Position numbers and translations under genes: made by a program. 64,000 bases of DNA. Origin: Bacilli bacterium. Its GTDB lineage: Bacteria; Bacillota_I; Bacilli_A; RFN20; CAG-826. This document shows, piece by piece, positions 2,053 through 30,174 of this stretch (positions are counted from its first letter, which is position 1; every line of letters starts with the position of its first letter). Under the pieces are notes generated by a model. That model did no database searches. It saw only the letters and a list, made by a program, of their open reading frames with translations, and was not told the DNA's origin. Location of the stretch: assembly GCA_900767605.1 (NCBI GenBank), contig CAAFZT010000063.1, positions 3,747-67,746 on the forward strand, in the 5' to 3' direction.

Positions 2053-2754
2053 TCAATGAGCTTGAGACTTCGAGACGAATTTTGCCTGAATCGGCAACAC
2101 AAATGACCCACCAGCCTTTAGTTCGCTGACCGTGCACTTATCGCCGCCTAGATATAAAGCATCATTGATTTTAAAAACTATCCCTGAGGTCTTGGCATAT
2201 TGAGTTGCTTCCCGTTTCATGAAATAGAACGTGGTATCTTTCCCATCGTATTGGAAATTATCAAGGGAAGCATTCTCCGGAGTATTTAACCGCAGGTTAA
2301 ACATGGGGAACAAATACGGATCCGATATACGAACAGGAACGGTATAGGTAGAACCCGCCGCCCCATCCAATACCGTCGTAACCTGGAACGTCACCTGTTT
2401 TTCAAAGGAAGCATAGAGTTTCAAGGTATAATCCTTAATGGTGAAGGAACTTAATGAGACACTCCCCTTATAGAGCTTCGTCCCATTTTGTTCTTTCCAA
2501 CCCGCGAAATAAGTATGGTTTTCCGTATCATCGCTTAGAAAGGGCGTAGAGAAAAAACTATCTTGTTCTAAACCCGTCAGGCTTTTCGTTAAAGTATCGC
2601 CATTATAGAAATTCACCGTATAGAATTTCTCGGTTGGGGTTTGGGTGTTTTTGATGTTAACAACACTCCAAACGGCATAACCAACTACCGCGGATAAGCC
2701 AGCAAAAGCAAGGGAGGATAAAATCACGATGCCAATCTTGCTTCTTCTTTTCAT
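2053..2754 (-). CDS. Small secreted/anchored protein, paralog of 7265..7975, with a Listeria-Bacteroides (Flg_new)-like repeat
   Basis: N-terminal hydrophobic helix ending 'VVGYAVWSVVN'. 'YTVNFYNGDT...FAGWKEQNG...LKLYASF' resembles the Flg_new repeat. ATGA overlap with the upstream gene. Confidence 0.6.
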   Translation of the reverse strand: MKRRSKIGIVILSSLAFAGLSAVVGYAVWSVVNIKNTQTPTEKFYTVNFYNGDTLTKSLTGLEQDSFFSTPFLSDDTENHTYFAGWKEQNGTKLYKGSVSLSSFTIKDYTLKLYASFEKQVTFQVTTVLDGAAGSTYTVPVRISDPYLFPMFNLRLNTPENASLDNFQYDGKDTTFYFMKREATQYAKTSGIVFKINDALYLGGDKCTVSELKAGGSFVLPIQAKFVSKSQAH

Positions 2755-3380
2755 GATGCTTTGCCTCCTAAACGCAGTTCGAGATTGTAGGAATAATGGG
2801 ATAATTCCTTATCCTCCGTTTGATTCCGTAATAACAGGACTAATTGATGATTGAATTCAAAGGATAAATTACTAGTTAAGGCAACGGATGACGTTGGAAC
2901 TCTAAACAACAAATCGAAGGTAATATAGGTGCTATAAGACGCATAGGTTAAGGCGGAGCTTCCCCACTTCAAAGCCCCTAGTACAGTCCCTTCACTCTTA
3001 AATGCTTCCAAATAATTCCCGTCCTGGTTTTTAATCCCAAACGCACCAGAGAAAGTGAATTCATAATTCCCGTTCACGGGATTGGACTTTAGTCCTTCGG
3101 ATAAAGAACTATCCACCACGAATTGATAGGTAAGGCTGGCTTTGGTTTTATCCGTTTCCCCATTAAAGAAATAGGTACCTAGATTGGGGTTATGGGTGTT
3201 GGACATATTCAGCCCATCCACATGATCAAGGAATACGCCATCCGCGTTGCCGTTTAGGTTTCCTGACCCTTGGCTGGACCCTTGCCCAACAATCGCCCAC
3301 GAAGAAAAACCAACCGTGATGCAGGTAAGGCAGCATAACGTGACTACCAAGATTTCCGAGGCAAAGATCTTCTTTTTCAT
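2751..3380 (-). CDS. Small secreted protein with a 'GF(A/S)xW' N-terminal signal, paralog of 7972..8604
   Basis: 'CITVGFSSWAIVGQGSSQGSGNLNGNADGVFL' aligns with 'STGFAAWVIQGDNTNPEGQGTLNGEADYVFL' in 7972..8604. 4-nt overlaps on both sides. Confidence 0.6.
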   Translation of the reverse strand: MKKKIFASEILVVTLCCLTCITVGFSSWAIVGQGSSQGSGNLNGNADGVFLDHVDGLNMSNTHNPNLGTYFFNGETDKTKASLTYQFVVDSSLSEGLKSNPVNGNYEFTFSGAFGIKNQDGNYLEAFKSEGTVLGALKWGSSALTYASYSTYITFDLLFRVPTSSVALTSNLSFEFNHQLVLLLRNQTEDKELSHYSYNLELRLGGKAS

Positions 3381-6300
3381 GCGTTAGCCTCCGGAGGGGT
3401 CACCGTAATCGGATTCATCATCGAATCGCAGAGATAACCATTCGCATCAAAGTAATAGAGGCCTGCGTTTGTGGCTTTGCCGTTTAGTTTTCCTTCTTCC
3501 ACATAATAGGTGCCATCCCTCATGATGGAACCGTCGTCTTTGGCGTAATAGATGTGGGTGCCAGAGACGAAAAGCCCGATGCCAGCTTTAATCGTGCCGA
3601 AAGTGCAATAGCCGTCCGCGGATAATGTCACCGAATCCACGTCAGCAAAGTTCGAACATTCTAGTACTTCCACTCGGCCATCGTTGCCGAAGGTGTAGGC
3701 GCCGGCAGGGAGGAGATTATTTAGGTTGGTATCGATATAGCACGTCGTGTTGCGGTAAGCGTAATGGGAGGGGCCGAAATAGTAATAATAGATTTTCATA
3801 ATGTCACCGGACGGAACATTAAGTTCAACAAGACCTTTATTATTTTGTACCACCCCATTATCTACATAATAGGTGTTGCCATCGCCTCCGCCATCGTATT
3901 TGGCTCCTGTAGCATAGGTAAAGAACACGCCCGTTCCGGTTAATAGACGACCATTTTCGTCGAAACAGTATAAATTCTCAGGCCGCGCTCCTTCCCCATC
4001 AATGTCGTCAATGTAACGCAACCCTTTGATTTTGCCCAGGGTGCGATCGTAATAAAAAGTATATTTGCTGTTGTCTCTATACCAGCCGCCGATAAATGCA
4101 ATAAGTACGGTGCTGTCTCGAATAGCAGTAATGCTCGTATTTGGCTCATAGGAACGAGTTTTATCGCCTTCCTCAAGCCAAAGGAAAATAGAGCCTTGAA
4201 AACCAGTAAACCCACTTTGGTTTGGAAGTTCAATGCCGCTTCCATCAATCGTATATTTTTTAGTTCCAATAACCGTGGTTCCGTCCGCACCCTTAAAAGT
4301 GATTGTGATTTCTTTAGTCCCTTGGCCTTGAACCTTCCAAAAACCATTTTCATATACCAAAGCGGTATTCATGGGACATGTTTCTATAAAGAAAGTCTCA
4401 TTTGAATTCATGAAAATAGCTGTTGTAGTATCGATATTTCTCTCTTCACTATTATTAAAGTACTGCTTCGTCTGAACGCCGGCATCGGTTTTCGGCGTAT
4501 ACGCACCAGGAACATACGTAAATTTTCCCCCGCCATCAGACACCACTTTTGCAACAGCAGGGGAATCCTGATTTTCTATATCTGACTTTGTCATGAAAAT
4601 TCCGCCGTTGCATTGGACATCGCCATTAATTATTAACTTTGCTCCTTGATTTAGTGGCCGTTGTGCTTTTGCAAAATCCGCGCTCGCGGAAGGCGAAACG
4701 TACGGTAGACGAAAAGCATCCGATGTATAGCCATATTTTTGGCCAACCCAATTGCTCAAATCATAAAATATAAGCTTATGTTTTTGCCCAAGATTTAAAA
4801 CGGCCCCTTTATCAACCCGCATCGTGGCGCCAGGAAGAAACTCTAGGTCTTGCTCAACCCCAACCGTGCCATCCTGCACGATGATATCCATGTTATTAAC
4901 AATCGGTAAAACGTAATCGGCGGAGTCAACAGACACTCTAATTTTTACAACAATATGAGAGAGCGTTCCACTGCCAACAACTCTCATTGTCAATCGGTCT
5001 GTTTTAGGATCGTATTTTTTAATTACTTTTGAATTTTGACTCAAGACAAACATTCCGTTTGCACCAATAAAAGTAAAACAAGAAGTTTGCTCCCCAAAAA
5101 GTTTAACAGTTATCGAGACGGATGTCTTTTCCGTGGCCCCGTAGTACACATGCAAATAGCACTCGATATTTTGGATAAAATATTGGTTGAATGGGAATAT
5201 TTTCTTTCCTTTACAGTCGGACGTGGCGGTTCCACCTCTAAAGCAAAAAGCAAAACCTTCGTAGACCGTCGAGCCGCTTCGGGCATGAATGTCTCCTTCC
5301 CCCGAAACAAATCCCCAAGCATATAGATTTGTACCCGATTCTAAATTAATTGTGCTGCCGGCGGCTAAATATATTTCCCCAACTTCATCAACGGGCCGCG
5401 CCGATATTTCCCCACCTTGAGCCATGCGCAATTTTCCAGCGACGCATACAGAAGAACCTTTTTGAACCAATATTGAAACACCGGCCAAAAGGCGCAAACT
5501 ATAATCGCAAGTAAACGTCGTCGATGCGCTTGTCAGCGGGATTTCCTTGGCAAAATCCAAATAATTCGAAGTTGCCGCTCCCGGAATAAATAAATTGACC
5601 CCTTCGGGCATAACGTACTCCGAGCCATCTTTTTTCGGCTCAACCTGGCCGCTTTTATACAACTTAACAAGTTTGGAACTTGTTGTTTTTGCATAATCCA
5701 TTGCTAATTGAAGGTCGTAAAAAGTTTTTTGTTCCACTCCGAATACGGCCGTTTTCTCGTCAACTGCGTTCACCTCAATTTTTGTATTAACTTCTCGAAT
5801 TTGAAAAGAATAGGGATCATTGTCTCCACATGATGCATCGTTTATTTTCCAATCAATAAAAATGTAGCCAGAAATTGCCTTTGGAGATTTTAGGGTTACG
5901 GAGTCGCCCGTTTTGCAATTCACGTCAGAATCTAATGAAACTCGGGAACCGTTGACATAAGCCTCATAAGCGCACAGTGGATTCGACTCAAATCGAACAA
6001 CGGCCGAAACGGAAGGCACTTCCAATTTTAGATTGGAAATTGTAACCGTTGTTTTGGCACTTGTTGAATTACTAGTCAATTTAACAGACACACTTTCTTG
6101 TTTTTGAATATCCTTGTTAAAATTTCCATTAGCCGTAATTTTATTGTTGTCTATTTCCATTGTGCCGCCTTGCAAATCAACAACATAATCAAAAGACAGC
6201 ACCCCAGCCTGGTTGCACATTATTGTAAGAGTAGTGTTGTAATGTTTTGGGCTGCTACCGCAACCACCGCCTTCAGATTGTGTGGCGCCAATAACTTGAG

Positions 6301-6499
6301 AATTACTATAAGTCCACGGGTTGTTAGCTTCCGTTCCAGCATAAGTCAATTTTATTCCGGTTTCGGTTTCGCTCCACCCCGTAACCGTTCCGCTCGTCGC
6401 GGCATAACCAACATCAATAAAGCTAACTCCTATTGCTGTAGTAGCTACAAATAGACTGAAAGCAATGGAAAGCCACTTCCATAATCCTCTACGCTTCAT
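3377..6499 (-). CDS. Giant secreted surface protein with C-terminal YG-type cell-wall/glucan-binding repeats, paralog of 8601..11489
   Basis: N-terminal signal-like helix. Shared central blocks 'FPFNQYF(I/V)QNIE' and 'YVLPI(V/T)NN(M/I)DI'. C-terminal aromatic repeats 'GLYYFDANGY', 'NLYCFDENGRL', 'TYYVDNGVV'. Confidence 0.7.
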   Translation of the reverse strand: MKRRGLWKWLSIAFSLFVATTAIGVSFIDVGYAATSGTVTGWSETETGIKLTYAGTEANNPWTYSNSQVIGATQSEGGGCGSSPKHYNTTLTIMCNQAGVLSFDYVVDLQGGTMEIDNNKITANGNFNKDIQKQESVSVKLTSNSTSAKTTVTISNLKLEVPSVSAVVRFESNPLCAYEAYVNGSRVSLDSDVNCKTGDSVTLKSPKAISGYIFIDWKINDASCGDNDPYSFQIREVNTKIEVNAVDEKTAVFGVEQKTFYDLQLAMDYAKTTSSKLVKLYKSGQVEPKKDGSEYVMPEGVNLFIPGAATSNYLDFAKEIPLTSASTTFTCDYSLRLLAGVSILVQKGSSVCVAGKLRMAQGGEISARPVDEVGEIYLAAGSTINLESGTNLYAWGFVSGEGDIHARSGSTVYEGFAFCFRGGTATSDCKGKKIFPFNQYFIQNIECYLHVYYGATEKTSVSITVKLFGEQTSCFTFIGANGMFVLSQNSKVIKKYDPKTDRLTMRVVGSGTLSHIVVKIRVSVDSADYVLPIVNNMDIIVQDGTVGVEQDLEFLPGATMRVDKGAVLNLGQKHKLIFYDLSNWVGQKYGYTSDAFRLPYVSPSASADFAKAQRPLNQGAKLIINGDVQCNGGIFMTKSDIENQDSPAVAKVVSDGGGKFTYVPGAYTPKTDAGVQTKQYFNNSEERNIDTTTAIFMNSNETFFIETCPMNTALVYENGFWKVQGQGTKEITITFKGADGTTVIGTKKYTIDGSGIELPNQSGFTGFQGSIFLWLEEGDKTRSYEPNTSITAIRDSTVLIAFIGGWYRDNSKYTFYYDRTLGKIKGLRYIDDIDGEGARPENLYCFDENGRLLTGTGVFFTYATGAKYDGGGDGNTYYVDNGVVQNNKGLVELNVPSGDIMKIYYYYFGPSHYAYRNTTCYIDTNLNNLLPAGAYTFGNDGRVEVLECSNFADVDSVTLSADGYCTFGTIKAGIGLFVSGTHIYYAKDDGSIMRDGTYYVEEGKLNGKATNAGLYYFDANGYLCDSMMNPITVTPPEANA

Positions 6500-7268
6500 A
6501 TTCGATACCCCTCTTCTGGTTTCGTCGATTTAGCAATAGATACGTGGCAATCCACACGATTCCTAAAACGACAGATACGATGGACCAGATATGGCCAAAA
6601 TGGAGAACAGCACTTCCGTTATATTCCCGGAACCACTCGATAATGAAACGGAAAATTCCATATCCCACCATATAGATGGGGTAGAGGATTCCTTTGCCTT
6701 TTTGGCCTATAAAAAGCCAAATCAAAGCAAGGAGAAAAGCGAATTGAAATAGAATCTCAATTAAAGGGGTCGGGAAGTGTTTCCCATTATTCATCAAGAT
6801 ACCTTGGCAACACCCATGCACCAAACAATTGAATCTTGCTAGCATCAACGTGCAAGTTAAACAGGGGGTGAAAATATCAAAGGATAAAGGAATCGATACT
6901 TTCTTGGTTTTTGCAAAACCAAGATAAAACAAAGGCATAAAGAAAATGCCACCATAAAGGGATAAATTCCCTGCTTTGGTTGCATCAAACCCCGCTTCTA
7001 ATAAAGCGAAGAATTTAACAAACAGAACCCCAATGATTGTATGAGCAAGGCTAACAAGAATGATTTCCCAGACTCGAATTTGGAGTTTCTTTCGGTAAAG
7101 AAATAACCACACAAAAATAAATCCGGTGGATAGGGTTAATAAAAGGATTAGGATCCACCACGAAGAAAAGAAGGATGCTAGTGGCGAAGCTGAGCCATCG
7201 AAAAGGACGGAATAATTAGAACCCCCCCCCAATCGAATTGGGAGGTTGGTCAGCAAGAGGCCCATCAT
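6489..7268 (-). CDS. Prolipoprotein diacylglyceryl transferase (Lgt) family paralog
   Basis: Polytopic membrane protein with 'ARFNCLVHGCCQG', 'FPTPLIEILFQ' and 'YGIFRFIIEWFRE'. These match the Lgt family pattern (GR.GCF..GCC.G / PTQLYE / YG..RF..E..R). Confidence 0.7.
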   Translation of the reverse strand: MMGLLLTNLPIRLGGGSNYSVLFDGSASPLASFFSSWWILILLLTLSTGFIFVWLFLYRKKLQIRVWEIILVSLAHTIIGVLFVKFFALLEAGFDATKAGNLSLYGGIFFMPLFYLGFAKTKKVSIPLSFDIFTPCLTCTLMLARFNCLVHGCCQGILMNNGKHFPTPLIEILFQFAFLLALIWLFIGQKGKGILYPIYMVGYGIFRFIIEWFREYNGSAVLHFGHIWSIVSVVLGIVWIATYLLLNRRNQKRGIEYEA

Positions 7269-7975
7269 CCTAGAACCTCCACATAATTTGCAGTCAACGC
7301 AAGCGCATTCCCTATATTCGGATCATTCACCATATTCGGATTAAGAATCAATCCATCATTAATTCCGAACTTCGTCCCGTTCTTGTTCTCGCTAGCCCAT
7401 TCTCCGTTGCTTTGTAGTTCTTTATACGTCAAGGTAGCCGTAGACGAGAAGGAGACCAGCTTATAAGCAACCTTATTCACGGTGAATTCATTTTCTATTG
7501 CTAGATTGGACAACAAATAGAGATAGGGATTGCTATCGATGATAACGCTTGTCGAATAATTCACCTGCTTCGGTGACGAACAAGTGACGTTAATCGTTAG
7601 AATCGGATCATAGACCGCATATAACGATAAAGTTTTATTTGCCCTATCAAAGGAAGTTAAATCCACGAGTTTTAAAGACTCTGTATAAATGTTCGTCTTG
7701 TCCGGACCCGCTTCTTTCCAGCCTTTGAAATGCTGCGTTGGCGTATCTTCTATCCACGGCAAGGAAAAGGATGAATCAATTTCTAGGTTCGTATAGGTCG
7801 TATAGATATCGTTTGCAGACGTATAGAATTTAACCGTATAACCCACTTCATTAAAGGAAGCAGACGTATCTTCTTTTTGAATGCTGGCCCACAAGGAAAA
7901 TCCGGTTCCCGTCGCCGCGGCAACAAGCCCCACAGACAAAATTGAGATTATGGCAATCTTGGCATTTCTTTTCAT
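7265..7975 (-). CDS. Small secreted/anchored protein, paralog of 2053..2754, with a Flg_new-like repeat
   Basis: N-terminal helix ending 'GTGFSLWASIQ'. 'YTVKFYTSAND...FKGWKEAG...LSLYAVY'. ATGA overlaps. Confidence 0.6.
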   Translation of the reverse strand: MKRNAKIAIISILSVGLVAAATGTGFSLWASIQKEDTSASFNEVGYTVKFYTSANDIYTTYTNLEIDSSFSLPWIEDTPTQHFKGWKEAGPDKTNIYTESLKLVDLTSFDRANKTLSLYAVYDPILTINVTCSSPKQVNYSTSVIIDSNPYLYLLSNLAIENEFTVNKVAYKLVSFSSTATLTYKELQSNGEWASENKNGTKFGINDGLILNPNMVNDPNIGNALALTANYVEVLG

Positions 7976-8604
7976 GCGTTGCCTCCTAACCCGAAGCTAA
8001 GCCGGAAGGTAAAATCGTTCAGTTTTAAGTTTGTGTCAGACTTCATCGCTTGACGGGCCGCGATAACGATATGGTGAGAAATCGTAAACGATAGGACGGA
8101 CGTGCTTGTGGTCTCTGGCACGACGAAAAGCAAATCCACGGATCCTGTGGATGCATTCGTCGTCACTGCTTCAGTTGTAGTCCCGTAAGTGCAGGATTGA
8201 ACGATTTCATTCGCGTTCCCATAATAGGTTTTCTTGGATTTGCTATATAACCCAAAAGTGCACTTCAAGGTGAATTGATTCAAATCGATCATCGTTTGGT
8301 TCATTTTGGCGCGGCTTAAGTCAAAGGTATACGACAAAGGCGCTTCCTTCACGGCAGCATCCCCCCCATTATCAAAGAAATAGGTGCCGAAGCTCGGTAA
8401 TGCCGTGGTCATTTTGATATCGATTCCATTGGTATCCCCAAGGAAGACATAATCGGCTTCCCCATTTAAGGTTCCCTGTCCCTCAGGATTGGTATTATCC
8501 CCTTGGATGACCCAGGCAGCAAAACCAGTGGAAGCTAAAACGGAGGCAGCAAGAACGCTGACACATAGTAACATGACGTTTTTATTGGGTTTAAAAGGGT
8601 TCAT
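7972..8604 (-). CDS. Small secreted protein with a 'GFAAW' N-terminal signal, paralog of 2751..3380
   Basis: 'ASTGFAAWVIQGDNTNPEGQGTLNGEADYVFL'. Shares the 'GTYFF(D/N)' block and the C-terminal 'L(S/R)(F/L)G(L)GG(N/K)A' end with 2751..3380. Confidence 0.6.
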   Translation of the reverse strand: MNPFKPNKNVMLLCVSVLAASVLASTGFAAWVIQGDNTNPEGQGTLNGEADYVFLGDTNGIDIKMTTALPSFGTYFFDNGGDAAVKEAPLSYTFDLSRAKMNQTMIDLNQFTLKCTFGLYSKSKKTYYGNANEIVQSCTYGTTTEAVTTNASTGSVDLLFVVPETTSTSVLSFTISHHIVIAARQAMKSDTNLKLNDFTFRLSFGLGGNA

Positions 8605-11489: not shown

Positions 11490-11530
11490 GGTTATTGCCT
11501 CCTTTCTTGGTTAGTTAACGATTGAATGTA

Positions 11531-12610: not shown

Positions 12611-12629
12611 ATTCGTTCTCCTTTTAGTT

Positions 12630-15146: not shown

Positions 15147-15147
15147 C

Positions 15148-16740: not shown

Positions 16741-17510
16741 TATTTCTCTTTCTCCTCGCTTTCATAGACTTCAAAGAAGGTGCGTTTTAAGCTAAGTCGC
16801 GCATTCGGGTTCTTCTTTAAATCGAGCAACAAGGCGATTTTGCCATGATTTAAAATAGCAACGCGGTCACATAATTCACGGACTAAATCGATATTATGGC
16901 TAGTAAGCAAGACCGTTTGGCCATTATCCGCGTATTCGCGCATCATCTTCGTTAATTCTTCTACGGCCATGACGTCGAGACCAACGGTCGGCTCATCAAG
17001 GATCCAAATTTCCGGGCGATGGAGAAGGGAAGCAATTAAGCAGAGCTTCTGCTTCATGCCGTGGCTATATCCCGAATTCGGACGGCTTAAGGCTTCTTCG
17101 CTTAAGTCTAAGCGCTTGGCGAGGTATTTCGCGTTATTCGCAAAATCCACCTGGGACACGGAATAAACGGAAGCGATGAAATCTAAATATTCGTATCCCG
17201 TCATCGATTCGTAGCAATTCGGTTCACTAGCAACGTAGCCAAAATGGGCTTTCGCTTCTAACGGATGAAGCAAAATATCGTCGCCTAGGATTTTAATTTC
17301 GCCGCTTTGAAATTTCTTGCAGCCGATGACGCAGTCAATGGTCGTGGATTTACCAACGCCGTTTTTCCCTAAAAAGCCAAAAACCTCTCCTTTTTTGACT
17401 TGGAGATTGAGTCCTTGGATGACTTCTTTCTTGCCGTAGCTTTTATGGAGTTCATTAATTTCCAGGGCACATTCAGAGGAAGGGAGTTTTTCTAAATGAT
17501 TGAAATCCAT
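16740..17510 (-). CDS. ABC transporter ATP-binding protein
   Basis: Walker A 'GKNGVGKST', signature-like 'YSHGMKQKL', Walker B 'ILDEPTVGLD', H-loop 'TSHN'. I chose the start at M12 (MDFNHLEK), which overlaps the upstream stop as TAATG. Confidence 0.9.
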   Translation of the reverse strand: MDFNHLEKLPSSECALEINELHKSYGKKEVIQGLNLQVKKGEVFGFLGKNGVGKSTTIDCVIGCKKFQSGEIKILGDDILLHPLEAKAHFGYVASEPNCYESMTGYEYLDFIASVYSVSQVDFANNAKYLAKRLDLSEEALSRPNSGYSHGMKQKLCLIASLLHRPEIWILDEPTVGLDVMAVEELTKMMREYADNGQTVLLTSHNIDLVRELCDRVAILNHGKIALLLDLKKNPNARLSLKRTFFEVYESEEKEK

Positions 17511-18841
17511 TATTCTTCTTCCTCCTTTTGGCTCAATACCCATAAGCGGGTTTGCTTTTTCTTAGTTTGAATAAAGGCGTATTTGCTATGGCAGTGCGGA
17601 CATTCTTTGACGTATCCTTCTTCTAGCATTCCCTTTTCACCACATACCGGGCAATAAAGGGAATATAAGGGGATCGAAGCTTCCTTTAATTCTCCTTTGC
17701 CTTGGAAAAGACGCTTTAATAACGCTTCTTCTCCATCTTCTTGGTGGATAGGAAGATATTTCTTTCTTCCTAGGATCGCCGTATCCCAAATGGAGAGGAC
17801 ATCGATTTCATCGTAGGCAGAAGTTTCTCCTGCGTATTTCCCTAAGCTAAACCCTTCTAAGGAATCGCTAGCGGTAAATAACAGCAAATATTTCGCGGTA
17901 GGATGGTCTTCTTTCCCAAGGGGAGTAAGTTCAAAACGTAACGCATCAAAATCAACGCGGTTGATGACCAATAAGAAATCCTTGGAAATCAAACGGATAT
18001 CTTTCGAATGGGTTAAGAAATCGTTTTTGGGGTCCATAGAAACCCGGCTGGATTTAGGGGACAAGGCAAAGCCGCCATTTAAGAGAAGCTTTAAAATATA
18101 GCAATAGAAATAGGTGCCTAAATCTTCGGTGGCGCTATTATTACGGCCATATTGGCTGATTTCAAGGTAAAAGCGGTACACCCGGTGATACAGGCGGTCC
18201 GACTTTAAGATGTTCGTTGGATAAATCCGGGGAAGATCGCAATTAGCTTTGGAAACGATCCGATAGAAATCGCTTTTTTGAATCCTCTCGATTTTACTAA
18301 ATAAACGGGGGAACGCGCATAAGGCTTCGTAGGTGCGATCGCTATCTAAGCTTAAGCGAGTCGAATTCACCAAATGAATGCGATTTTCATAGAAGGCTTT
18401 CCGGTGACGTAATTCTTTTTCGATTCGGCGTAAGGCCATCACAATGAAAAGGTTCTCGTAGATTAAAATATCGTCTTCGTTTTCTTTGTGATGGACGTAT
18501 TCCGGTTCCATTCTCCCCGCTTTATTTTTCCATAAGGCCGGATCGCGGAGGGTTTTGGCAAAGGAATCATTGCTTAACGAACCCGCTTGATCGGCACGAA
18601 GAATCGTCTCCACGTTTTTGGAGACTACATGCGGCTTATGGCAGATCGTTTCTATGATCGACAAAATATGAGAGGCTTCCTCGAAGAAGGCAAAGTCTCC
18701 ATCGATGAAAGCCCCTTGTAACGATAGAAAGGGGGAAGAAGAAAGCGAGTCAAAGAACCCGCGGATCGTCGGGCTTGAACTCTTCAACGAAGCAATATGT
18801 GTACTAGCTTCTTGAAGCCGCCTTTCTTCTTCCTTTCTCAT
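17510..18841 (-). CDS. Partner of the McrB-like NTPase (McrC/DUF2357-like N-terminal region?) with a C-terminal Zn-ribbon
   Basis: 'DDILIYENLFIVMALRRIEKEL' and 'PTNILKSDRLYHRVYRFY' align with 'DVDYQIYENRFVWSLINKAALFIEKRY' and 'RTNMIVKEPHYHACYELW' of 62741..64000. C-terminal 'CPVCGEKG...CPHCHSKY'. No clear PD-(D/E)XK motif seen. Confidence 0.5.
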   Translation of the reverse strand: MRKEEERRLQEASTHIASLKSSSPTIRGFFDSLSSSPFLSLQGAFIDGDFAFFEEASHILSIIETICHKPHVVSKNVETILRADQAGSLSNDSFAKTLRDPALWKNKAGRMEPEYVHHKENEDDILIYENLFIVMALRRIEKELRHRKAFYENRIHLVNSTRLSLDSDRTYEALCAFPRLFSKIERIQKSDFYRIVSKANCDLPRIYPTNILKSDRLYHRVYRFYLEISQYGRNNSATEDLGTYFYCYILKLLLNGGFALSPKSSRVSMDPKNDFLTHSKDIRLISKDFLLVINRVDFDALRFELTPLGKEDHPTAKYLLLFTASDSLEGFSLGKYAGETSAYDEIDVLSIWDTAILGRKKYLPIHQEDGEEALLKRLFQGKGELKEASIPLYSLYCPVCGEKGMLEEGYVKECPHCHSKYAFIQTKKKQTRLWVLSQKEEEE

Positions 18842-18858
18842 GATAACCCCTTTCTGGA

Positions 18859-20772
18859 CTAAAAGCGACGTAACATGCGTTTAATGGCGTCGCGCGATTG
18901 ATTAAATTTGTTATCCCCGTATAAAGATGAGATCAAATCGAGGATATGTTCTAAGCCCGGCTTGACGTTATCTTCATAACGCCCTTCGAGCTTCGATAGA
19001 ATTTTGCGGGTTAAGAAGAAATCGAGAACCGTTTCTTTCTTGCCACCGCAGGCGATAAATACCGGGACCATCTTCTCCATCTGCATGAGGATACGGTTGC
19101 CAAAGGCGACCCCAAATTCATCATAGACGTAATCGGTGATTTGCTCGAATTTGGTTTCATCGGCTTCCGTTAAGGCATAATCCTTATTTGCTTCCGCTTC
19201 GTCGAATAAGGCGTGAAGCTTCGAAGCACTTAAAACGATGGGTTCGACTTCTTCTTTGGCAGCAAAAGCCGCGTTACGGTTATGGAAGGATAAGGTAATC
19301 GCACGGTCATAGACCTTATCGGCAATGGAGAAGGTCGAATCGTCTTGGTTCGCCGTTCCAATAAAATAGGCAGAGCCTGGAATATCGACTTTTCCGTCTT
19401 CGAGTTTTGCAGGTCCAACAAACCCTGTTGGGAAATGCATGACGCGGATCTTCCATTCGTCTTCTGGATATTCCAAGACGGAGAGGAAGTCTGCAAAATA
19501 ATATTCAACGCGGGAGATATTCATTTCATCCAAAACGAAGAGATAAATACGGTCCGGGTTGTAATTGGCTTCATAAAGATTCATCAAGAAGTCCGTCTCG
19601 CGGTAAGTTTTCGAGAAATCGTTAAAATAACCAATTAAGGCCGATTTATCTCTCCAAGTCGCTTGGACCGGGACGAAGACACTGACGCCTCCTACGAATT
19701 TAGCAAAGCTACGCGGGAGAGAGGATTTTCCAGTTCCCGATAGACCTTCAAGGATTTCTAGATGGGAAGCGGCTAAACCCGCGACAAAGAAACGAAGGGT
19801 GTCGGTATCGTAATAGAGTTTTTCTTTTCCTGCTAAGAAGGAACGGAATTTGGTGATTAATTCCGGCAAAGCGATATCATCCCCATGGATCGATTCAATC
19901 GCATAGCCTTCATAATGCTTATCGATTTTGCATAAAGAGGGGAAGACGATTTCTCTTTCTGCAAGGGCTTCGGCGGTGGCACCAGTTCCTGCTCCCCCAG
20001 CTCCTCCGCCTTCTACATTTTCTGCAGAGATTTGGCTCGAGACGCTTTGGAAGCCGTTATTCGTTTCGTCTCCCATCCCTTTGGCCACATCTTCGTTCCG
20101 GTCTTCTTCTTCCAAAGAATCGCCAACTTTAGCAAAGGGCTTACCAAGATGAACAAAGTTCACCAGGCAAAGCAATACAGCAGAAATCAAAACGGCGAAG
20201 AAGAGATAGAGCAATAAGCTAATTAAGAGGGATTCGCCAAGGAACGTCATGGCGTTGCCTAGATTCTCTTTTGTATGAGGGACTTGGAGGAGTAAACCAA
20301 ATCCAACGGAAAGAGCAAGGCAAACAAGGAGGGTTCCTACATACCAAAGCCAATTCTTCTTCGCGTACCATTTCTTGCCGTCTAGAATCGCGTGACGGTA
20401 TTCAAAGATAAAGGCAAAAACGAAGAGGCTGATAAAGATCGCGACGAGAACGTTTAACGTCTGTCCGCCCATATGGGCGTTAATCGCGGGTAATCCTAAG
20501 CTTTGACGGAGCAAGGCAATCGGGTTTTTAGAAGAAACAAGGCTCGATTCTCCTTCTCCGTGCACGGTGATGCAGATCCCGACGAAAATCATTAAGAAGG
20601 TGAAAAACATCGATAAACCGATGGAAATCAAATTTCCGCGGGTGAGATATTCCCTTCGAATTCCTTTCGTTGGCTTTTCTTTACTCTCGGGGGCTTTGGG
20701 AGCTTCTGGCTCTGCAACAGAATTCGCCGTTAACGAATCCATCCCGAGGTTTTCGTTTTCTTGAATGTCCAT
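18859..20772 (-). CDS. Membrane-anchored McrB-family AAA+ (AAA_5-like) NTPase
   Basis: Walker A 'GLSGTGKSS'. McrB-type Walker B 'FVLDEMNISRVEYYFADFLSVLE'. 'FIGTANQDDSTFSIADKVYDRA' resembles McrB 'NTADRS...D.AL.RRF'. About five N-terminal TM helices and a Gly-rich linker. Start is uncertain: 20772 has an AAAGGAA SD; 20793 and 20889 are also in frame. Confidence 0.7.
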   Translation of the reverse strand: MDIQENENLGMDSLTANSVAEPEAPKAPESKEKPTKGIRREYLTRGNLISIGLSMFFTFLMIFVGICITVHGEGESSLVSSKNPIALLRQSLGLPAINAHMGGQTLNVLVAIFISLFVFAFIFEYRHAILDGKKWYAKKNWLWYVGTLLVCLALSVGFGLLLQVPHTKENLGNAMTFLGESLLISLLLYLFFAVLISAVLLCLVNFVHLGKPFAKVGDSLEEEDRNEDVAKGMGDETNNGFQSVSSQISAENVEGGGAGGAGTGATAEALAEREIVFPSLCKIDKHYEGYAIESIHGDDIALPELITKFRSFLAGKEKLYYDTDTLRFFVAGLAASHLEILEGLSGTGKSSLPRSFAKFVGGVSVFVPVQATWRDKSALIGYFNDFSKTYRETDFLMNLYEANYNPDRIYLFVLDEMNISRVEYYFADFLSVLEYPEDEWKIRVMHFPTGFVGPAKLEDGKVDIPGSAYFIGTANQDDSTFSIADKVYDRAITLSFHNRNAAFAAKEEVEPIVLSASKLHALFDEAEANKDYALTEADETKFEQITDYVYDEFGVAFGNRILMQMEKMVPVFIACGGKKETVLDFFLTRKILSKLEGRYEDNVKPGLEHILDLISSLYGDNKFNQSRDAIKRMLRRF

Positions 20773-20785
20773 GGGGGTATTCCTT

Positions 20786-21910
20786 TCATTCATAATCTTT
20801 CGTCGTATCTTGGATTTCTTCTTCGTTATTTTGCTCTTCTTCATAACTCGAAGTATCCATGAGTTCTTCTTCTTGGATGGGGGTTTCACCCATCAAGAAG
20901 CTAGAGGAGGTTTCTTGGCCGTTAGAAGTGACGACCTTTTTGAGGTTATTGCCAAGGCCTGGGGCTTCTTCTTTAGAGAGGAAGCCCGCTTCATTGAAGT
21001 GATAAGCATAACCTCCATAATAGATGGTCTCGCGGAAAGCAGAACTTAGATTCTTCGGGTCTTTTTTGACGGAGACCGAATCAACAATCTCCGCTAACTT
21101 TTGAACCCGTTCTTCTTCCGCCTTGTCGATTTTTCCAGCGAGGTAATTAAACATCAAGATGCTATAAGCAACGGAGAGAATCGTGATGATGCCGTGGGGG
21201 GATTGGAAGAACATGACGAGCATTCCAATTCCTTGGACCTTCTTCCCGTTATAGACGCCTTTGATGTCGTCTAAGGTTGCGTAATATTGTTCTTGGCCGG
21301 CGTTATCTGTAGCGTTATTCGCATCTCCCCGAGTCACGTAACGGGTCACCCCGTCCGATCCGGTTTTGATATCAATCACGCGGTGGATATAAATCGCATT
21401 CGCCGCGGGATTCCGGTTATAGAAGGCCACAACATCATAGAGGTGGATGTCACTGGCTTCATGAACCTTCGTCACAAAGATCATGTCGTATTGGGCGAAT
21501 TGATTGTCTAACGTATAGGTCTTTTGCTTCTCTTCGTCGAATAGATAGCTATTCGCATCGTTTTTAAAGCTCATGGAGCCGGAAGCGACGACTAACATCG
21601 ATTCATTCCCAAATCCCGTTAAGTTCCCTTGGGCTTTGTTAATCAAAGCGAAGGCGAACGCGGGGGTGATTAAGGCTAAGAAACCATAGAACAATACGTT
21701 GGAGATAATCGTTCCGGCCTTCTTTCGTCTTTTGGCTTTGACGTCCTGCTCCGTGATTTCCCGGTCGATGAGTTCGATGTCGCGTTTCCCTTCTTTCGTC
21801 TCCTTCACGTTGGCTTTGACGTATTTGCCAAATAGAATTGTGAAGACGGCGCAGAAGCTCACAACACCCAGCAAACTCATCACCAGGCTGATGATGTCCG
21901 CGGATTTCAT
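20786..21910 (-). CDS. SipW-like (ER/archaeal-type, S26B) signal peptidase I with extra TM helix and acidic C-terminal tail
   Basis: 'VVASGSMSFKN' (SGSM Ser box), 'IYIHRVIDI' (His box), 'VTRGDANNATD' (GDNN-like box), 'IKGVYNGK'. It sits next to genes with SipW-class signals. Confidence 0.7.
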   Translation of the reverse strand: MKSADIISLVMSLLGVVSFCAVFTILFGKYVKANVKETKEGKRDIELIDREITEQDVKAKRRKKAGTIISNVLFYGFLALITPAFAFALINKAQGNLTGFGNESMLVVASGSMSFKNDANSYLFDEEKQKTYTLDNQFAQYDMIFVTKVHEASDIHLYDVVAFYNRNPAANAIYIHRVIDIKTGSDGVTRYVTRGDANNATDNAGQEQYYATLDDIKGVYNGKKVQGIGMLVMFFQSPHGIITILSVAYSILMFNYLAGKIDKAEEERVQKLAEIVDSVSVKKDPKNLSSAFRETIYYGGYAYHFNEAGFLSKEEAPGLGNNLKKVVTSNGQETSSSFLMGETPIQEEELMDTSSYEEEQNNEEEIQDTTKDYE

Positions 21911-21912
21911 AA

Positions 21913-22707
21913 CTAGTTGATCTCCGCGGTGAGGATCGCCGTGAAACTTAATTCTGGCAGGTCTTTTTCATCAGTTGGATAAGGTCCTTTGAAGTCTTTG
22001 CCATAATGAAGAAGCGTTGTGAAATTCTTCATCTCTTGGCGCATTGTTTCATCTGGGATCGAAGCCCCTCCGCCGGGATTAGCATCATCATAATAAATCG
22101 AGGGATTTACATGATTGAATTTCTCGCCCCACTTAAAACCAAGGGTCACATCAAAAGATTTGGAATCGTCTTTAGAATCCACAGCCCCAAGGGGGATTTC
22201 AACGGGATGGTTGATATAATCTGTAGAATTGTTGATGGGGGCTAATTCGATATAACCCGCTTCAATAGCATCTAAAATAGGATTCCCCTTATATCCTTCA
22301 TAAGCCGTCGCGGTTTGTAACTGCAACGTAACTCTAGAGATATAAGTCCAGGGCAGGACTTTGCCTTGGATACAAACCGTAAGATGTTCATAGAGGTTTT
22401 TCCCATCATCGAGATAACAGAAGCGACCCGCTTTATCGTCTTTGGGAGCATCAAAGCAAATGGTGTTATACAAATCGTCGTTGGTGGCTTTAAAGAAATC
22501 GGTCAATTGGCCTCCATCCGTCGATTCGAAGCGTACTTTGGCGTCTTGGATGACACCGATGTGGGCGTTGCCACCACTAGAGGCCGAGGCGGAACTCGTA
22601 ACTACGAAAGCCGCCGCTCCAACGGAGCAAAGCGAAACCACGGCGAAAACGGAGACACCGAGTGTCACCATTTTCTTGGTCTGTTTCTCCATCTTGGAGC
22701 GGCGCAT
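21913..22707 (-). CDS. Secreted protein, member 4 of the tandem 'GFAxW / FxWGxxF..NP..(F/Y)Y' family
   Basis: N-terminal helix '...CSVGAAAFVVTSSASASSGG'. C-terminal 'LGFKWGEKFNHVNPSIYYDD'. Confidence 0.6.
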   Translation of the reverse strand: MRRSKMEKQTKKMVTLGVSVFAVVSLCSVGAAAFVVTSSASASSGGNAHIGVIQDAKVRFESTDGGQLTDFFKATNDDLYNTICFDAPKDDKAGRFCYLDDGKNLYEHLTVCIQGKVLPWTYISRVTLQLQTATAYEGYKGNPILDAIEAGYIELAPINNSTDYINHPVEIPLGAVDSKDDSKSFDVTLGFKWGEKFNHVNPSIYYDDANPGGGASIPDETMRQEMKNFTTLLHYGKDFKGPYPTDEKDLPELSFTAILTAEIN

Positions 22708-22752
22708 CTAGTTCTAATTCCCCTCTTATATATTTATATAGATATAGAACAA

Positions 22753-23562
22753 TTAGGCGGCAGCGGCACCGGAGGTATCGGCGGTTACAACAACGACGAA
22801 GTTCAACGCAGAATAACCTGCTGCAATTTCATCGGGGGTCCCGGCTTCCTTGCCGGTAAGAGCCTTGTAGAACTTGTTCAAATCTTCTTTGTATTTATCC
22901 CCACCGTAATTCTTTGTTCCTGTTTTAGAATCATAGAATTCGGACGGGTTTAAATTTTTGTTGGTATCTTCCGTATCTTTAAAATGGTCGCCCCAAGCAA
23001 ACGAAATCGTATAGCTGAGCGTCGCTTTGCTCTTATCCGTAGCAACCGTGAGGGTCTTGCCTTCTTCGGCTATACCATTGGTGTCGAAGTCAACGCCGGC
23101 TTCGCCAAAGCAATCGGGAAGAACAATATATTTGTTCGGATCGGCAGCCGCTTCATTGAAACGAGTTTCCGCTTCGGCGCTGAACTCCGGATCAGCATCT
23201 TCCGAGGCGACGGTTCCCATGCGCAAAGCAATATTAAACTTATTGACCATATCAGGATTGGTGTATTCGCCCGAAACGGTAATGGAGAGATTCTCCCAGT
23301 TCTTGCCATCACAACGAACGCGCCCCGTCTTGTCGTCCCTCTTAGAATCGAAGGAGAATTTATCGGTGATCGGATTGACGGTCAATTTAATGGATTTATC
23401 AGAAACAACACCGACGTTAACGTTGCCTTGAACGTTTTTGGTTGCAGAGCTGGAGATAACCCAGGCTGCAAATCCAGTTGCCACAAGGGCAATGCCCGCA
23501 AAGGCAGTGGCCCCAACGACCATCGCTTTGCGTTGATAGGATTTTCTAGTTAATTTAGCCAT
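22753..23562 (-). CDS. Secreted protein, member 3 of the tandem family
   Basis: 'ALVATGFAAWVISSSATKNVQGNVNVGVV'. C-terminal 'ISFAWGDHFKD...NLNPSEFYDS'. Confidence 0.65.
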   Translation of the reverse strand: MAKLTRKSYQRKAMVVGATAFAGIALVATGFAAWVISSSATKNVQGNVNVGVVSDKSIKLTVNPITDKFSFDSKRDDKTGRVRCDGKNWENLSITVSGEYTNPDMVNKFNIALRMGTVASEDADPEFSAEAETRFNEAAADPNKYIVLPDCFGEAGVDFDTNGIAEEGKTLTVATDKSKATLSYTISFAWGDHFKDTEDTNKNLNPSEFYDSKTGTKNYGGDKYKEDLNKFYKALTGKEAGTPDEIAAGYSALNFVVVVTADTSGAAAA

Positions 23563-23581
23563 AACAGCAACGACTCCTTAA

Positions 23582-24322
23582 TTATTTTCTAACAATGTCA
23601 ACGCCAATCGCGAAGCCAACTTCATTGACCTTGAACAATTCGTGAATGCAGAAGACCGCATCGTCCGCCCAGGTATAAGGATCTTCAGCTTTCTTGGATT
23701 CGGGTCTGCTATTAACCGGCATGGTGGTCGAACCATCCGTGTCGCCATTGTTGTAGAATTCCAAAGGATTCTTATCGCCAAAGTGGGTTCCCCATTTAAA
23801 CGTAACCGTCATTTTGACAGTGGTCCCCGCGGCAGCAAGCTTATATGCGCCGCCTTCAGGTGTATCAAATTTGACCTCGGGTTCGGCAGCAACCAATCCA
23901 AGGGTTTTGGCGTTGGTCCAATTATCAGCGCCAGCCGTTAATTTAAATTTGTTCTCGCCCGTTTGTTGTGCAACGGTAAATGTGCCCGTGTCGCCGTCAT
24001 CTTTTGATTTAACCGTAAAGGTATACACGATTTCCAATTGCTCGGCTTTTTCGCCTTCGCCGGAGGAAAAACTAAACCAATTGTTAGTAAGTCCCGTCTT
24101 GTTATTGGTTCCGAAAACGATTTCGCCATTGCCATCGCCATTTGCCTTGTCCCAGGTTCCGCCTTCAACAACCAAGCGATGGTCGGCGACGTCAAAAGCC
24201 GTCACAACACCAGACGCGCTGGTGGTAGCATTTGCCGAGATAACCCAGCCTGCAAAGCCGGTACCGATGAGGGCCATGGATCCGAGGCTAGCCACGGCCA
24301 TGATCATTGCTTTTTTCTTCAT
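23582..24322 (-). CDS. Secreted protein, member 2 of the tandem family
   Basis: 'ALIGTGFAGWVISANATTSASGVV'. C-terminal 'VTFKWGTHFGDKNPLEFYNN'. Confidence 0.65.
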   Translation of the reverse strand: MKKKAMIMAVASLGSMALIGTGFAGWVISANATTSASGVVTAFDVADHRLVVEGGTWDKANGDGNGEIVFGTNNKTGLTNNWFSFSSGEGEKAEQLEIVYTFTVKSKDDGDTGTFTVAQQTGENKFKLTAGADNWTNAKTLGLVAAEPEVKFDTPEGGAYKLAAAGTTVKMTVTFKWGTHFGDKNPLEFYNNGDTDGSTTMPVNSRPESKKAEDPYTWADDAVFCIHELFKVNEVGFAIGVDIVRK

Positions 24323-24375
24323 GATTTTTTTACTCCTTTTAAATATTTATAAACTAATGAAGGAAACTAATTTAA

Positions 24376-25140
24376 TTACTTCGCCGAAACGGTGAACGAG
24401 TGGGTGAAGCCTGCGCCAGTAAGCGTTTTTAATTTTGCGATCTTTTCACTTGCATCGGCTCCATGACTAGCTTTCGTTTTGGTACCGTCGTTGTAATAGT
24501 CCATTGGGTTCTTGTGATTGAATGCGGCGCCCCAAGCAAACCCGATAGAGAATTTGATAGTCAACGTTTGCTCCGTCGGGAGTTTATTGACTTTCAGCGT
24601 AGCTTGATTGTTCGCAGCGCTAACCTCAAACTTGTTGCCAGTCTCTGTTTTGCTAATGGTTATATAACCGGAATCCGTACTCGTAGAATCTTTCAGCGTC
24701 GGTAACGCACCCACAACACCGGAAGTTTCGCCCTTGTCCATCAACGTAGAATAGGTGGAACCCGTTTCGACAAATGAGATGTCCGAAACGCTGATGGTTG
24801 TAACGTTCGTATATTTGACAACGAACGTGTATTCCGCTTTAAGGTCTTCCTTATTCGCCTCATTGGTGCCAAGATCGGCGGTCAACCATCCGTTCGGTTT
24901 GGAGGCAGCATTCGCGCCAAAGACAATTTTGGCGTCGCCATCAGCGCCAGTTCCAAACCCTGTGCCTTCGGTAACTTTTTCCAGTCCAAGCGTGGTAACG
25001 TCGCCATCCGCTGTAATGGATCCGCTTCCTTCTCCTTTCTGAGACGGGGCGCCAATAATCCACCCTGCAAAGCCGGTGGAAATCACGCCGATGGACCCTA
25101 GCAGGGAAATGCCTGCTACAGCCATTTTTTTGTTTTTCAT
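24376..25140 (-). CDS. Secreted protein, member 1 (promoter-proximal) of the tandem family
   Basis: I chose the start at M33 (MKNKKMAVAG...), preceded by AAAGGGGA. 'VISTGFAGWIIGAPSQKGEGSG'. C-terminal 'IGFAWGAAFNHKNPMDYYND'. Confidence 0.65.
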   Translation of the reverse strand: MKNKKMAVAGISLLGSIGVISTGFAGWIIGAPSQKGEGSGSITADGDVTTLGLEKVTEGTGFGTGADGDAKIVFGANAASKPNGWLTADLGTNEANKEDLKAEYTFVVKYTNVTTISVSDISFVETGSTYSTLMDKGETSGVVGALPTLKDSTSTDSGYITISKTETGNKFEVSAANNQATLKVNKLPTEQTLTIKFSIGFAWGAAFNHKNPMDYYNDGTKTKASHGADASEKIAKLKTLTGAGFTHSFTVSAK

Positions 25141-25157
25141 GTTATTCCCCTTTATTG

Positions 25158-25227
25158 ATAGGTCGTGTGTATGCGCGGTTTCTTCTTCGATAGGAATGAA
25201 GAAAATACGCGTACACACGAGACCTAT
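25158..25227 (-). promoter_or_regulatory. Long imperfect hairpin in the 5' leader of the supra-operon
   Basis: The arms ATAGGTCTCGTGTGTACGCG and CGCGCATACACACGACCTAT (minus-strand reading) give about 18 bp with two bulges. They enclose a TTCTTC/GAAGAA hairpin. The structure ends about 10 nt before the SD of 24376..25140. Confidence 0.5.
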
Positions 25228-26933: not shown

Positions 26934-26953
26934 CTCTTTTTTATCACCCCACT

Positions 26954-26983
26954 GAGTTTTATCACCATGGGGTGATAAAACTC
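26954..26983. promoter_or_regulatory. Perfect 13-bp palindrome (operator-like) upstream of 26745..26933
   Basis: GAGTTTTATCACC-ATGG-GGTGATAAAACTC. An extra direct copy, TTTTATCACC, sits at 26939-26948. Confidence 0.5.
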
Positions 26984-27314: not shown

Positions 27315-27317
27315 AAA

Positions 27318-28367: not shown

Positions 28368-28376
28368 CTGGCTTCA

Positions 28377-30161: not shown

Positions 30162-30174
30162 GAAGCCACCATCC

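Follow-up and report, generated by a model that had tools for sequence, protein, structure and literature searches.

In one published paragraph, Bell et al. (2024; PMC11090510) connect homologs of the restriction system McrBC with cell-surface biology, giving the name CoCoPALM to those that are associated with signal peptidases and with the assembly of pili. They describe a large clade whose McrB GTPases carry a fused FtsB-like transmembrane (TM)/coiled-coil domain; we found no follow-up in the literature. The same source identifies DUF2357 as the N-terminal domain of McrC, which plugs the McrB ring (PMC11090510). A second point of reference is TasA, which is cleaved by SipW so that the mature protein starts at residue 28, and which donates an N-terminal strand formed by residues 28–38 (PMC9674648). 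Here, we analyze a cluster of 18 open reading frames (ORFs) in a 64,000-nucleotide stretch of a Bacilli bacterium contig (CAAFZT010000063.1), referred to below as the window. The ORFs lie in a row on the minus strand, as the initial annotation of the stretch had stated and as ORF listing and translation confirm; they extend from position 2053 to about 25140 and are numbered here from g18 at the 5′ end to g01 at the 3′ end. The cluster is most likely a McrBC-derived machine for the assembly of a surface fiber or coat, of a kind only hinted at in the literature. The initial annotation knew of no described system with this composition; CoCoPALM had already been named, and the locus is a variant of that named, uncharacterized kind, widespread in uncultured gut bacteria and in principle accessible to experiment.

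The product of g13 (18859–20793) is a 644-residue McrB-like NTPase of the AAA_5 clade of AAA+ proteins, assigned from profile, motif and TM evidence. It is predicted to consist of four N-terminal TM helices, a disordered linker rich in acidic residues and Gly, and a cytosolic AAA+ domain. No DNA-binding N-terminal domain is present on g13, its place being taken by the helices and the linker, and neither a long coiled coil nor an FtsB-like TM domain was found. The protein carries a Walker A motif (GTGKS), a Walker B motif (VLDEMN) and the segment N482-K-D-D485, all three invariant and the last compatible with both the NxD and the NxxD forms of the motif. These elements are collinear with those of Escherichia coli McrB (6hz4), the top sequence match in the PDB at a non-significant E value of 0.11; only a weak match (E = 0.0026) was obtained with the McrB model NF008457, and 20 of 27 relatives match AAA_5. 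A Foldseek search with the whole-length protein was led by MoxR, RavA, NorQ, MCM, Lon and dynein, which confirms the AAA+ assignment without singling out McrB. The four TM helices and the AAA_5/McrB-type motifs bear out the initial description of a membrane-embedded, McrB-like NTPase.

The partner of this NTPase, which the initial annotation passed over, is encoded immediately downstream by g12 (17510–18841). The protein is predicted to be cytosolic and matches PF09823 (DUF2357), the N-terminal domain of McrC, with 29.1 bits against a cut-off of 23.3. Among 32 aligned orthologs, the N-terminal half is conserved, the middle region varies and a zinc ribbon (CPxC...CxxC) lies at the C-terminus; no PD-(D/E)xK nuclease motif is conserved in the C-terminal half of these sequences. 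In a sequence-profile search of the PDB, the ribbon resembles those of the L37Ae type, and nothing beyond it was matched; no PADLOC model matched g12 either. Judged by these domains and motifs, the g12–g13 pair is a McrBC-derived module, predicted to be membrane-anchored and to lack a nuclease.

The setting of this pair is strongly conserved. NTPase homologs number more than 3688 in the protein collection and occur in at least 561 GTDB species genomes, under labels that include Mollicutes, Bacilli, Acholeplasmatales, Anaeroplasmataceae, "Staphylococcus sp. CAG:324" and Candidatus Onthovivens; we take these organisms to be RF39-like. All window proteins were compared by tblastn with 85 loci in which the NTPase is 43–99% identical to g13. 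Wherever contig ends allow, the order subunit genes–g14–g13–g12–g11–g10–g09–g08 is found in essentially all of them. Homologs of g11, g12 and g13 are present in every locus, those of g14 and g10 in 82 (the three gaps in g14 being contig ends), and those of g09 in 76, the remainder being cut by contig ends; one to five subunit genes accompany each core locus. In 81 of the 85 loci, g12 and g13 are flanked by g14 and g11. The remaining four (L069, L070, L071 and L077) have either an extra gene of about 2.5–4 kb, sometimes g07-like, between peptidase and NTPase or a rearranged local order, and their genes stay within the cluster. The NTPase is among the best-conserved genes of the locus, at 43–68% identity between species. 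The whole 18-gene layout recurs in a close relative from the same genus (L086), with the same end at g01 and a GmrSD gene next to it. Synteny in relatives, the check that the initial annotation had itself set, thus holds strongly for g08–g18 across the 85 loci and for all 18 genes in L086. Of the 18 genes proposed initially as one unit, g08–g18 form the conserved core; the distal half lies outside it, its modules of an Lgt-like gene, a giant gene and two small genes being accessory, strain-variable and separable.

Directly upstream of g13, g14 (20786–21910) encodes a signal peptidase I of the endoplasmic reticulum (ER)/archaeal type, that is, the SipW/SEC11 type. It matches TIGR02228 with an E value of 4.5e-12 (46.1 bits, just under the cut-off of 51.85) and the SipW model NF046067 with 7.7e-10, and a profile built from 29 orthologs matches human SEC11C and SEC11A with E values of 1e-8 to 8e-8, establishing homology to the S26B peptidases. 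Across these orthologs Ser112 (in SGSMS), His176-Arg177, Gly195-Asp196 and Asp202 are invariant and the GDxN box is conserved, so that the catalytic pair is Ser-His, not Ser-Lys. The model matches and the catalytic residues uphold the earlier assignment to the SipW type, and the peptidase looks active. Roughly double the size of SipW, it has three TM helices in all, one of them an addition at the N-terminus, and two conserved parts that face the cytosol, a loop (GKRDIELID) and the C-terminal tail (ETIYYKGYxYxFNExGF). No other SipW-like peptidase is encoded in the window. A second SipW-like paralog, 305 residues long and 33% identical to g14, occurs in a distant relative, a few kilobases downstream of the main cluster (L087, 18664–20221), where it is preceded by the gene for a 207-residue protein with the N-terminus ...SSALAAYIVTGG.

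The four genes upstream of the peptidase encode the putative substrates, namely g18 (24376–25140; 254 residues from the MKNKK start, matched by the A1 profile of the subunits at E = 3.5e-45, with the N-terminal sequence ...STGFA|GWIIG), g17 (23582–24322; 246 residues, placed by alignment and an AlphaFold2 (AF2) model), g16 (22753–23562; 269 residues) and g15 (21913–22707; 264 residues, beside the peptidase), the last two placed by paralogy. Pairwise and profile searches show all four to be mutual paralogs, in agreement with the four tandem paralogs of the initial annotation. A feature that it did not report is an N-terminus shared by eight small proteins of the cluster (g15–g18, g01, g02, g05 and g06), in which a basic head and a hydrophobic stretch are followed by G-x-[AS]|x-[WF], with Gly at –3, Ala or Ser at –1 and Trp or Phe at +2 of the predicted cleavage site; the variants are GFA|GW, GFA|AW, GFS|SW, GYA|VW and GAA|AF. 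In an alignment of 48 sequences comprising the g17 family and the window paralogs g15, g16 and g18, Gly22 and Ala24 (positions –3 and –1) are invariant, residues 1–28 are nearly so, residues 36–49 are conserved, and the remainder is about 40% identical. The family is large, with 1794 representatives at E ≤ 1e-3 after clustering at 50%, and the retrieved g17 homologs have no precomputed Pfam domain. The AF2 model of g17 (predicted local distance difference test score, pLDDT, 78) shows a beta-sandwich with helices and an unstructured stretch of 45 residues at the start. Its top Foldseek matches, none of them significant, are the donor-strand pilins CfaB, PapE and AggA (E = 0.04–0.07, TM-score 0.2–0.3), and a search of viral models in BFVD likewise gave nothing significant. 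A TasA/camelysin fold or family was considered for the subunits and rejected because the Foldseek searches of the PDB and BFVD with g17 returned nothing significant; there was also no match to Peptidase_M73 or to any other Pfam or NCBIfam family.

A further property that had gone unreported is the divergence of these proteins between strains. Among loci of the same species, in which core proteins are 96–99% identical and nucleotide identity is about 91–92%, g18 is 43–87% identical, g17 38–84% and g16 45–90%, and in the DNA of g16 and g17 only short stretches at the 5′ ends, which code for the signal segment, still align. The giant proteins of the distal half are 30–60% identical between strains (g07, 30–48%; g03, 60% in L086). 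The paralog beside the peptidase, g15, is conserved at 86–90% and is a candidate for a minor subunit or one at the base. As read from these alignments, the pattern is that of exposed antigens resembling pilins, flagellins or S-layer proteins, putatively selected by immunity or phages, with a conserved assembly end. Exposed and sharply different between strains, the subunits are probably what phages and host immunoglobulin A (IgA) chiefly target, and should be useful as strain markers.

Downstream of the NTPase pair, the core continues with an exporter and two conserved exoproteins. The ABC ATPase encoded by g11 (16740–17510, with the start at 17510) is of the DrrA/GldA/NodI (ABC-2) type (PF00005, E = 5e-24; TIGR01188, E = 1.4e-53). 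The adjacent g10 (15148–16740) encodes a polytopic permease of 530 residues and of the 12TM_1 (PF09847) type, placed by its orthologs and by hydropathy, which indicates about 10–12 TM helices; the window protein itself has no Pfam match, and the orthologs in L005 and L087 match PF09847, that in L004 weakly. ATPase and permease together substantiate the exporter named in the initial annotation. An extracytoplasmic protein of 838 residues with an N-terminal signal or anchor, conserved in relatives, is encoded by g09 (12630–15146); searches of Pfam, NCBIfam and PDB profiles assigned it to no known family and found no PDB sequence relative. The product of g08 (11531–12610) is a surface lipoprotein with a lipobox (...ASSC), collagen-flanked repeats and a C-terminal Listeria-Bacteroides (Flg_new) repeat.

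Taken together, we consider it somewhat probable that the locus encodes a machine dedicated to building a variable fiber or coat on the surface of uncultured gut Bacillota; the CoCoPALM precedent and the riboswitch-linked paralogous pair described below also count in favor of this. In such a machine the subunits would insert via Sec by means of their N-terminal segment, which hardly varies within an orthologous group, and g14 would cleave them after the invariant G-x-A (after Ala24 in g17). The new N-terminus, conserved as GWVIS...AxGVxTAxDV, may then act as a polymerization or docking strand, as in TasA-type donor-strand fibers, with the variable body of the subunit displayed on the surface. 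We infer both cleavage at this site and a fiber built through the conserved N-terminal stretch, a coat being less likely. The NTPase would form a hexamer in the membrane with g12 plugging its pore as McrC does in McrBC, the pair having been exapted from DNA restriction, and could form a gate or motor, driven by nucleotides and coupled to g14 by the conserved cytosolic loop and tail of the peptidase. The ABC exporter, g09 and g08 would probably make up the outer part, responsible for export and anchoring. The distal modules, each an Lgt-like gene, a giant gene and two small genes, would be exchangeable accessory cassettes whose giants are candidate tip proteins or adhesins and which would use the same peptidase signal.

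Several observations weigh against this proposal. No fiber has been seen, and literature searches on SipW in Mollicutes and on RF39 isolates found no study of any relative. Sequence alone ties g13 to McrB only weakly (E = 0.0026 and 0.11); in the Foldseek search McrB falls outside the top 50, with MoxR, RavA, MCM, Lon and dynein ahead of it, and the strongest library match of g13 is the phage-defense candidate PADLOC PDC-M26A (E = 7e-48, 162 bits). Defense genes also lie on the flanks of the cluster. The substrate model TIGR04088, named in the initial annotation as a check, detects none of the eight small N-termini at E ≤ 10, and Foldseek found nothing for g17 in the PDB at E ≤ 0.001, and no TasA. 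To our knowledge, TasA, AbpA and the thread filaments all self-assemble without any NTPase, so that a motor is not required by analogy, and the link between the NTPase pair and the peptidase and exporter is one that we infer.

The same subunit data could be accommodated by a variable coat or antigen system that does not polymerize. The near-invariant hydrophobic segment at the N-terminus could stay in place as an anchor, leaving the small proteins membrane-anchored or shed like the variable surface proteins of wall-less bacteria; the peptidase would then only mature them, and the NTPase pair and the ABC exporter would serve quality control, signal-peptide clearance or regulated shedding. Hypervariability between strains, the size and great diversity of the family, and the lack of a structural match to any fiber subunit all fit such a coat. 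On the other side, the invariant Gly at –3 and Ala at –1 argue for cleavage over anchoring, the conserved stretch just past the predicted cleavage site is hard to explain in a monomeric coat, and the conserved minor paralog g15 beside its variable neighbors resembles the minor and major sets of pilins. We regard a non-polymeric coat as unlikely.

A mosaic origin of the locus is a second alternative, in which g12–g13 would be a McrBC-like anti-phage module, akin to PDC-M26, that became fixed between a surface/peptidase operon and an ABC operon with which it shares no function. The match of g13 to PDC-M26A is consistent with this, as are the fact that McrBC relatives are overwhelmingly defense systems (PMC11090510) and the Fic, Schlafen/AlbA_2, GmrSD and PycTM genes that flank the locus. 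Defense modules are normally patchy and mobile, however, and here the pair keeps its place between g14 and g11 in all but four of 85 diverse loci, with conserved start/stop overlaps with both neighbors and with an NTPase that is among the most conserved proteins of the locus. Moreover, g12 has neither a nuclease motif nor a PADLOC match, and a four-TM anchor replaces the DNA-binding domain of g13. Given that the synteny is nearly absolute, that the overlaps are conserved, that the nuclease is missing and that g13 has a TM anchor, an independent defense module is the less likely reading, and we judge it improbable.

The distal half of the cluster is a tandem duplication. The genes g01 (2053–2754; 233 residues, ...VVGYA|VWSVV, the last gene of the cluster) and g05 (7265–7975; 236 residues, ...GTGFS|LWASI) encode paralogous small proteins, termed A (E = 1.2e-18); g02 (2751–3380; 209 residues, ...TVGFS|SWAIV) and g06 (7972–8604; 210 residues, ...STGFA|AWVIQ) encode small proteins B (E = 8.5e-19), of which g06 is also matched by the A1 subunit profile (E = 2.5e-6); and g03 (3377–6499; 1040 residues, secreted) and g07 (8601–11489; 962 residues, a lipoprotein with LLAGC) encode the giants (E = 8e-62). 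Pairwise homology at 28–36% identity therefore defines two copies of a giant–small B–small A module, g01–g03 and g05–g07, a duplication absent from the initial annotation. Lipoboxes are restricted to g07 and g08. Neither giant has a relative in Pfam (E ≤ 0.01, whole proteins), NCBIfam or the PDB by sequence, and their C-terminal 300 residues contain no Pfam repeat even at E ≤ 1; their earlier description as wall-binding was accordingly abandoned.

The gene between the two copies, g04 (6489–7268), belongs to the Lgt family (PF01790, 62.3 bits), as originally proposed; its scores lie far below the cut-offs of the equivalog models (TIGR00544, 45.9 against 118.9; a second model, 42.5 against 334 bits), which makes it a paralog within this family. 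The Lgt-like family returned 106 matches, and in L086, L087 and L088 an Lgt-like gene precedes a giant resembling g03 and g07. In L087 it follows g08 and precedes a giant and two small proteins. In L088 (10001–17081) an Lgt-like gene and such giants, one with Dockerin_1 and one, a distant relative, with a faint Choline_bind_3 match that is the sole hint of wall binding, lie in a Wzy/LicD/glycosyltransferase (polysaccharide) locus with no McrB core nearby. The Lgt-like gene thus follows the giants and not the machine, and the placement of modules in L087 and L088 sets the core, from g08 to the subunit genes, apart from separable accessory modules. A polymorphic-toxin or contact-dependent antagonism system, with giants as effectors, the small downstream genes as immunity or accessory factors and the ABC exporter and NTPase for export, would suit the duplication and swapping of giant–small–small modules between strains and the presence of an exporter, but is very improbable because the small proteins have subunit-class secretion N-termini unlike those of cytosolic immunity proteins and searches of Pfam and NCBIfam revealed no toxin domain, and the modules are absent from many loci that keep the core.

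The packing of the cluster is tight. With the most plausible start codons, the spacings from g18 to g01 are +53, +19, +45, +2, –8, +17, –1, –1, +1, +19, +41, –4, –4, –4, –11, –4 and –4 nucleotides, so that nine junctions are overlaps and the full range is –11 to +53. The overlaps listed initially are all present (ATGA at 2751, 3377, 7265, 7972 and 8601; TAATG at 16740 and 17510; 11 nucleotides at 6489); that list omitted an overlap of 8 nucleotides between g13 and the peptidase gene, which follows from the most likely start of g13 at 20793, giving the 644 residues called in relatives. The 5′ end had been placed at 25227, a coordinate that does not hold: the first ATG is at 25236, and the conserved N-terminus (MKNKKMAV...) starts at 25140. 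A GGAG- or AGGAG-like Shine-Dalgarno sequence precedes each of the 18 starts. Folding of the internal gaps revealed no stable hairpin or terminator in any of them, and simple scans of the cluster found promoter-like and terminator-like elements in numbers at or below those of shuffled sequences. The layout is therefore compatible with a single long transcript of the 18 genes. In relatives with 43–52% NTPase identity the core junctions are mostly overlaps of 1–11 nucleotides or gaps of at most 3, the largest gaps being 16–34. The use of TGA as a stop shows that the organism uses code 11. An exact-match look-up of one window protein gave no match.

Upstream of g18 is a leader of 220 nucleotides with a stable hairpin formed by an inverted repeat with arms of 23 nucleotides (25163–25220, minus strand). 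A 170-nucleotide leader sequence folds with a z-score of –4.5, and none of 200 shuffles is as stable. The hairpin belongs to no Rfam family, giving only spurious, below-threshold matches to miRNA hairpins, and a search upstream of the main type of cluster, covering six relatives besides the window leader, found no cyclic di-GMP (c-di-GMP) riboswitch. Directly upstream of the cluster, a gene (25361–26194, minus strand) encodes a Sel1-repeat protein that has three TM helices at its C-terminus; a terminator-like hairpin (25305–25293) lies between it and g18. Kept in only 7 of the 85 loci, those of the closest lineages, this gene is not part of the core. Defense-type genes lie on both sides of the cluster (26700–34800, 49700–58800 and 954–1982) and include Fic/DOC, three Schlafen AlbA_2/HATPase_c_4 genes, an SLFN-type helicase, AAA_14/DUF4143 ATPases and a weak PDC-S26 match; a PycTM gene lies upstream of the locus in L001. 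A secreted protein of 540 residues with a Big_3 domain (34833–36455, minus strand) has a weak C-terminal match to LPXTG anchors (E = 0.13), which may indicate sortase-type anchoring, and so a cell wall, in the organism.

Two c-di-GMP-I riboswitches are present elsewhere in the window. Riboswitches of this class commonly control pili and adhesins. One (48645–48721, minus strand; RF01051, 55.9 bits) lies directly upstream of a pair of minus-strand genes joined by an ATGA overlap, which encode proteins of 300 (47734–48636) and 1347 residues (43694–47737) with the N-termini ...STFAWFTTNR and ...SFSYAWFKNK. Three tandem paralogs of 301–319 residues follow downstream (38190–41100, minus strand) with N-termini of the ...GTFAWFTTNR type. 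The genes at 38190–48636 look like a second set of SipW-class-like substrates; an N-terminus of this second cluster scored 7.5 bits with TIGR04088, below the cut-off of 19. Homology of the 301-residue paralogs to g15–g18 was considered and rejected (hhalign probability 0.2%). The other riboswitch (58884–58959, plus strand; 58.9 bits) precedes four plus-strand genes (58962–60098, 60255–61184, 61200–62741 and 62741 to the end of the window). The third of these encodes a protein paralogous to g13 (39% identity, E = 7e-84), in which a single TM helix is followed by a coiled-coil-like helix; the fourth, cut off by the end of the window, encodes a homolog of g12 with DUF2357 (hhalign probability 97%; hmmsearch E = 5e-19). 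By this predicted architecture, the pair at 61200–64000 fits the published CoCoPALM description better than g12–g13 does, and its position behind a riboswitch would place a CoCoPALM-type system under c-di-GMP control.

A wider interpretation of the biogenesis machine is possible, though we find it doubtful. An exapted McrBC motor, having lost the nuclease and DNA-binding parts and gained a membrane anchor, would be the energizing or gating core of an unrecognized class of surface-filament assembly in hundreds of uncultured, reduced-genome species of gut Bacillota, with hypervariable SipW-processed subunits, exchangeable giant adhesins and CoCoPALM-type relatives under c-di-GMP riboswitches; this class would be unrelated to type IV, sortase, chaperone-usher and passive TasA-type assembly. 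If so, a GTPase motor known only from DNA restriction would serve the display of proteins at the membrane, which would be a new principle both for AAA+ biology and for surface-fiber assembly. The locus would also give the CoCoPALM idea its first concrete anatomy, consisting of a cleavage motif, a subunit family, conserved partners and, through the paralogous system, a link to c-di-GMP.

Comparison with other described systems helps to place the cluster. By analogy only, it resembles type IV pili and type II secretion: the N-terminus of the subunits is hydrophobic and conserved and their exposed body varies, major subunits are accompanied by minor ones, a peptidase is dedicated to the system, and a putatively hexameric cytosolic NTPase would act at a polytopic membrane platform. 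There is no homology, in that PilB/PilT, PilC, PilD and a class III signal peptide are all lacking, and the predicted cleavage falls after, not before, the hydrophobic segment. With PDC-M26 it shares the match of g13 to PDC-M26A and differs in that g12 matches no PADLOC model; the PDC families are untested candidates set by genomic association, whereas the context here is a conserved surface-protein locus.

The likeness to the tapA-sipW-tasA operon of Bacillus subtilis lies in an ER/archaeal-type peptidase gene beside putative substrates and in a conserved minor paralog beside variable major ones, as with TapA and TasA. The N-terminus of TasA reads ...GGGTWA|AFND; by eye, those of the cluster substrates resemble it, and in them the stretch after the cleavage site is conserved. 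Unlike TasA, the subunits of the cluster belong to neither the family nor the fold of TasA/camelysin (Peptidase_M73) and go unmatched by TIGR04088; unlike SipW, g14 is twice as long and has an extra TM helix and cytosolic parts; and TasA-type systems, including archaeal AbpA and the thread filaments, are not known to have an NTPase or ABC exporter.

The resemblance to McrBC itself is in the AAA_5-clade NTPase, whose Walker A and B and N-x-x-D motifs are collinear with those of E. coli McrB (at the non-significant E value of 0.11 given above), in the DUF2357 domain of g12, and in the adjacency of the two genes in the order McrB, then McrC. The differences are that four TM helices stand in g13 for the DNA-binding N-terminal domain, that a variable region and a zinc ribbon stand in g12 for the PD-(D/E)xK nuclease, and that in each of the 85 loci retrieved, drawn from at least 561 species genomes with the NTPase, the pair has a fixed place within a surface-protein locus.

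The closest likeness is to CoCoPALM, with which the cluster shares a membrane-anchored homolog of McrB-type GTPases beside a homolog of the McrC N-terminal domain (DUF2357), a predicted role in surface or pilus assembly and not in restriction, and, through the 39% identity between g13 and the window paralog at 61200–62741, kinship with a protein that has a CoCoPALM-type N-terminus. The signal peptidase gene g14 and g12 directly flank g13 in most of the 85 loci, four having insertions or rearrangements. In place of the FtsB-like TM/coiled-coil domain, g13 has a four-TM bundle and a disordered linker, and the ABC exporter, g09, g08 and the hypervariable subunits of the cluster lie outside the published description. 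By its domain content and gene context, the g12–g13 pair is a paralogous variant of CoCoPALM with a predicted four-TM anchor and a much richer conserved neighborhood.

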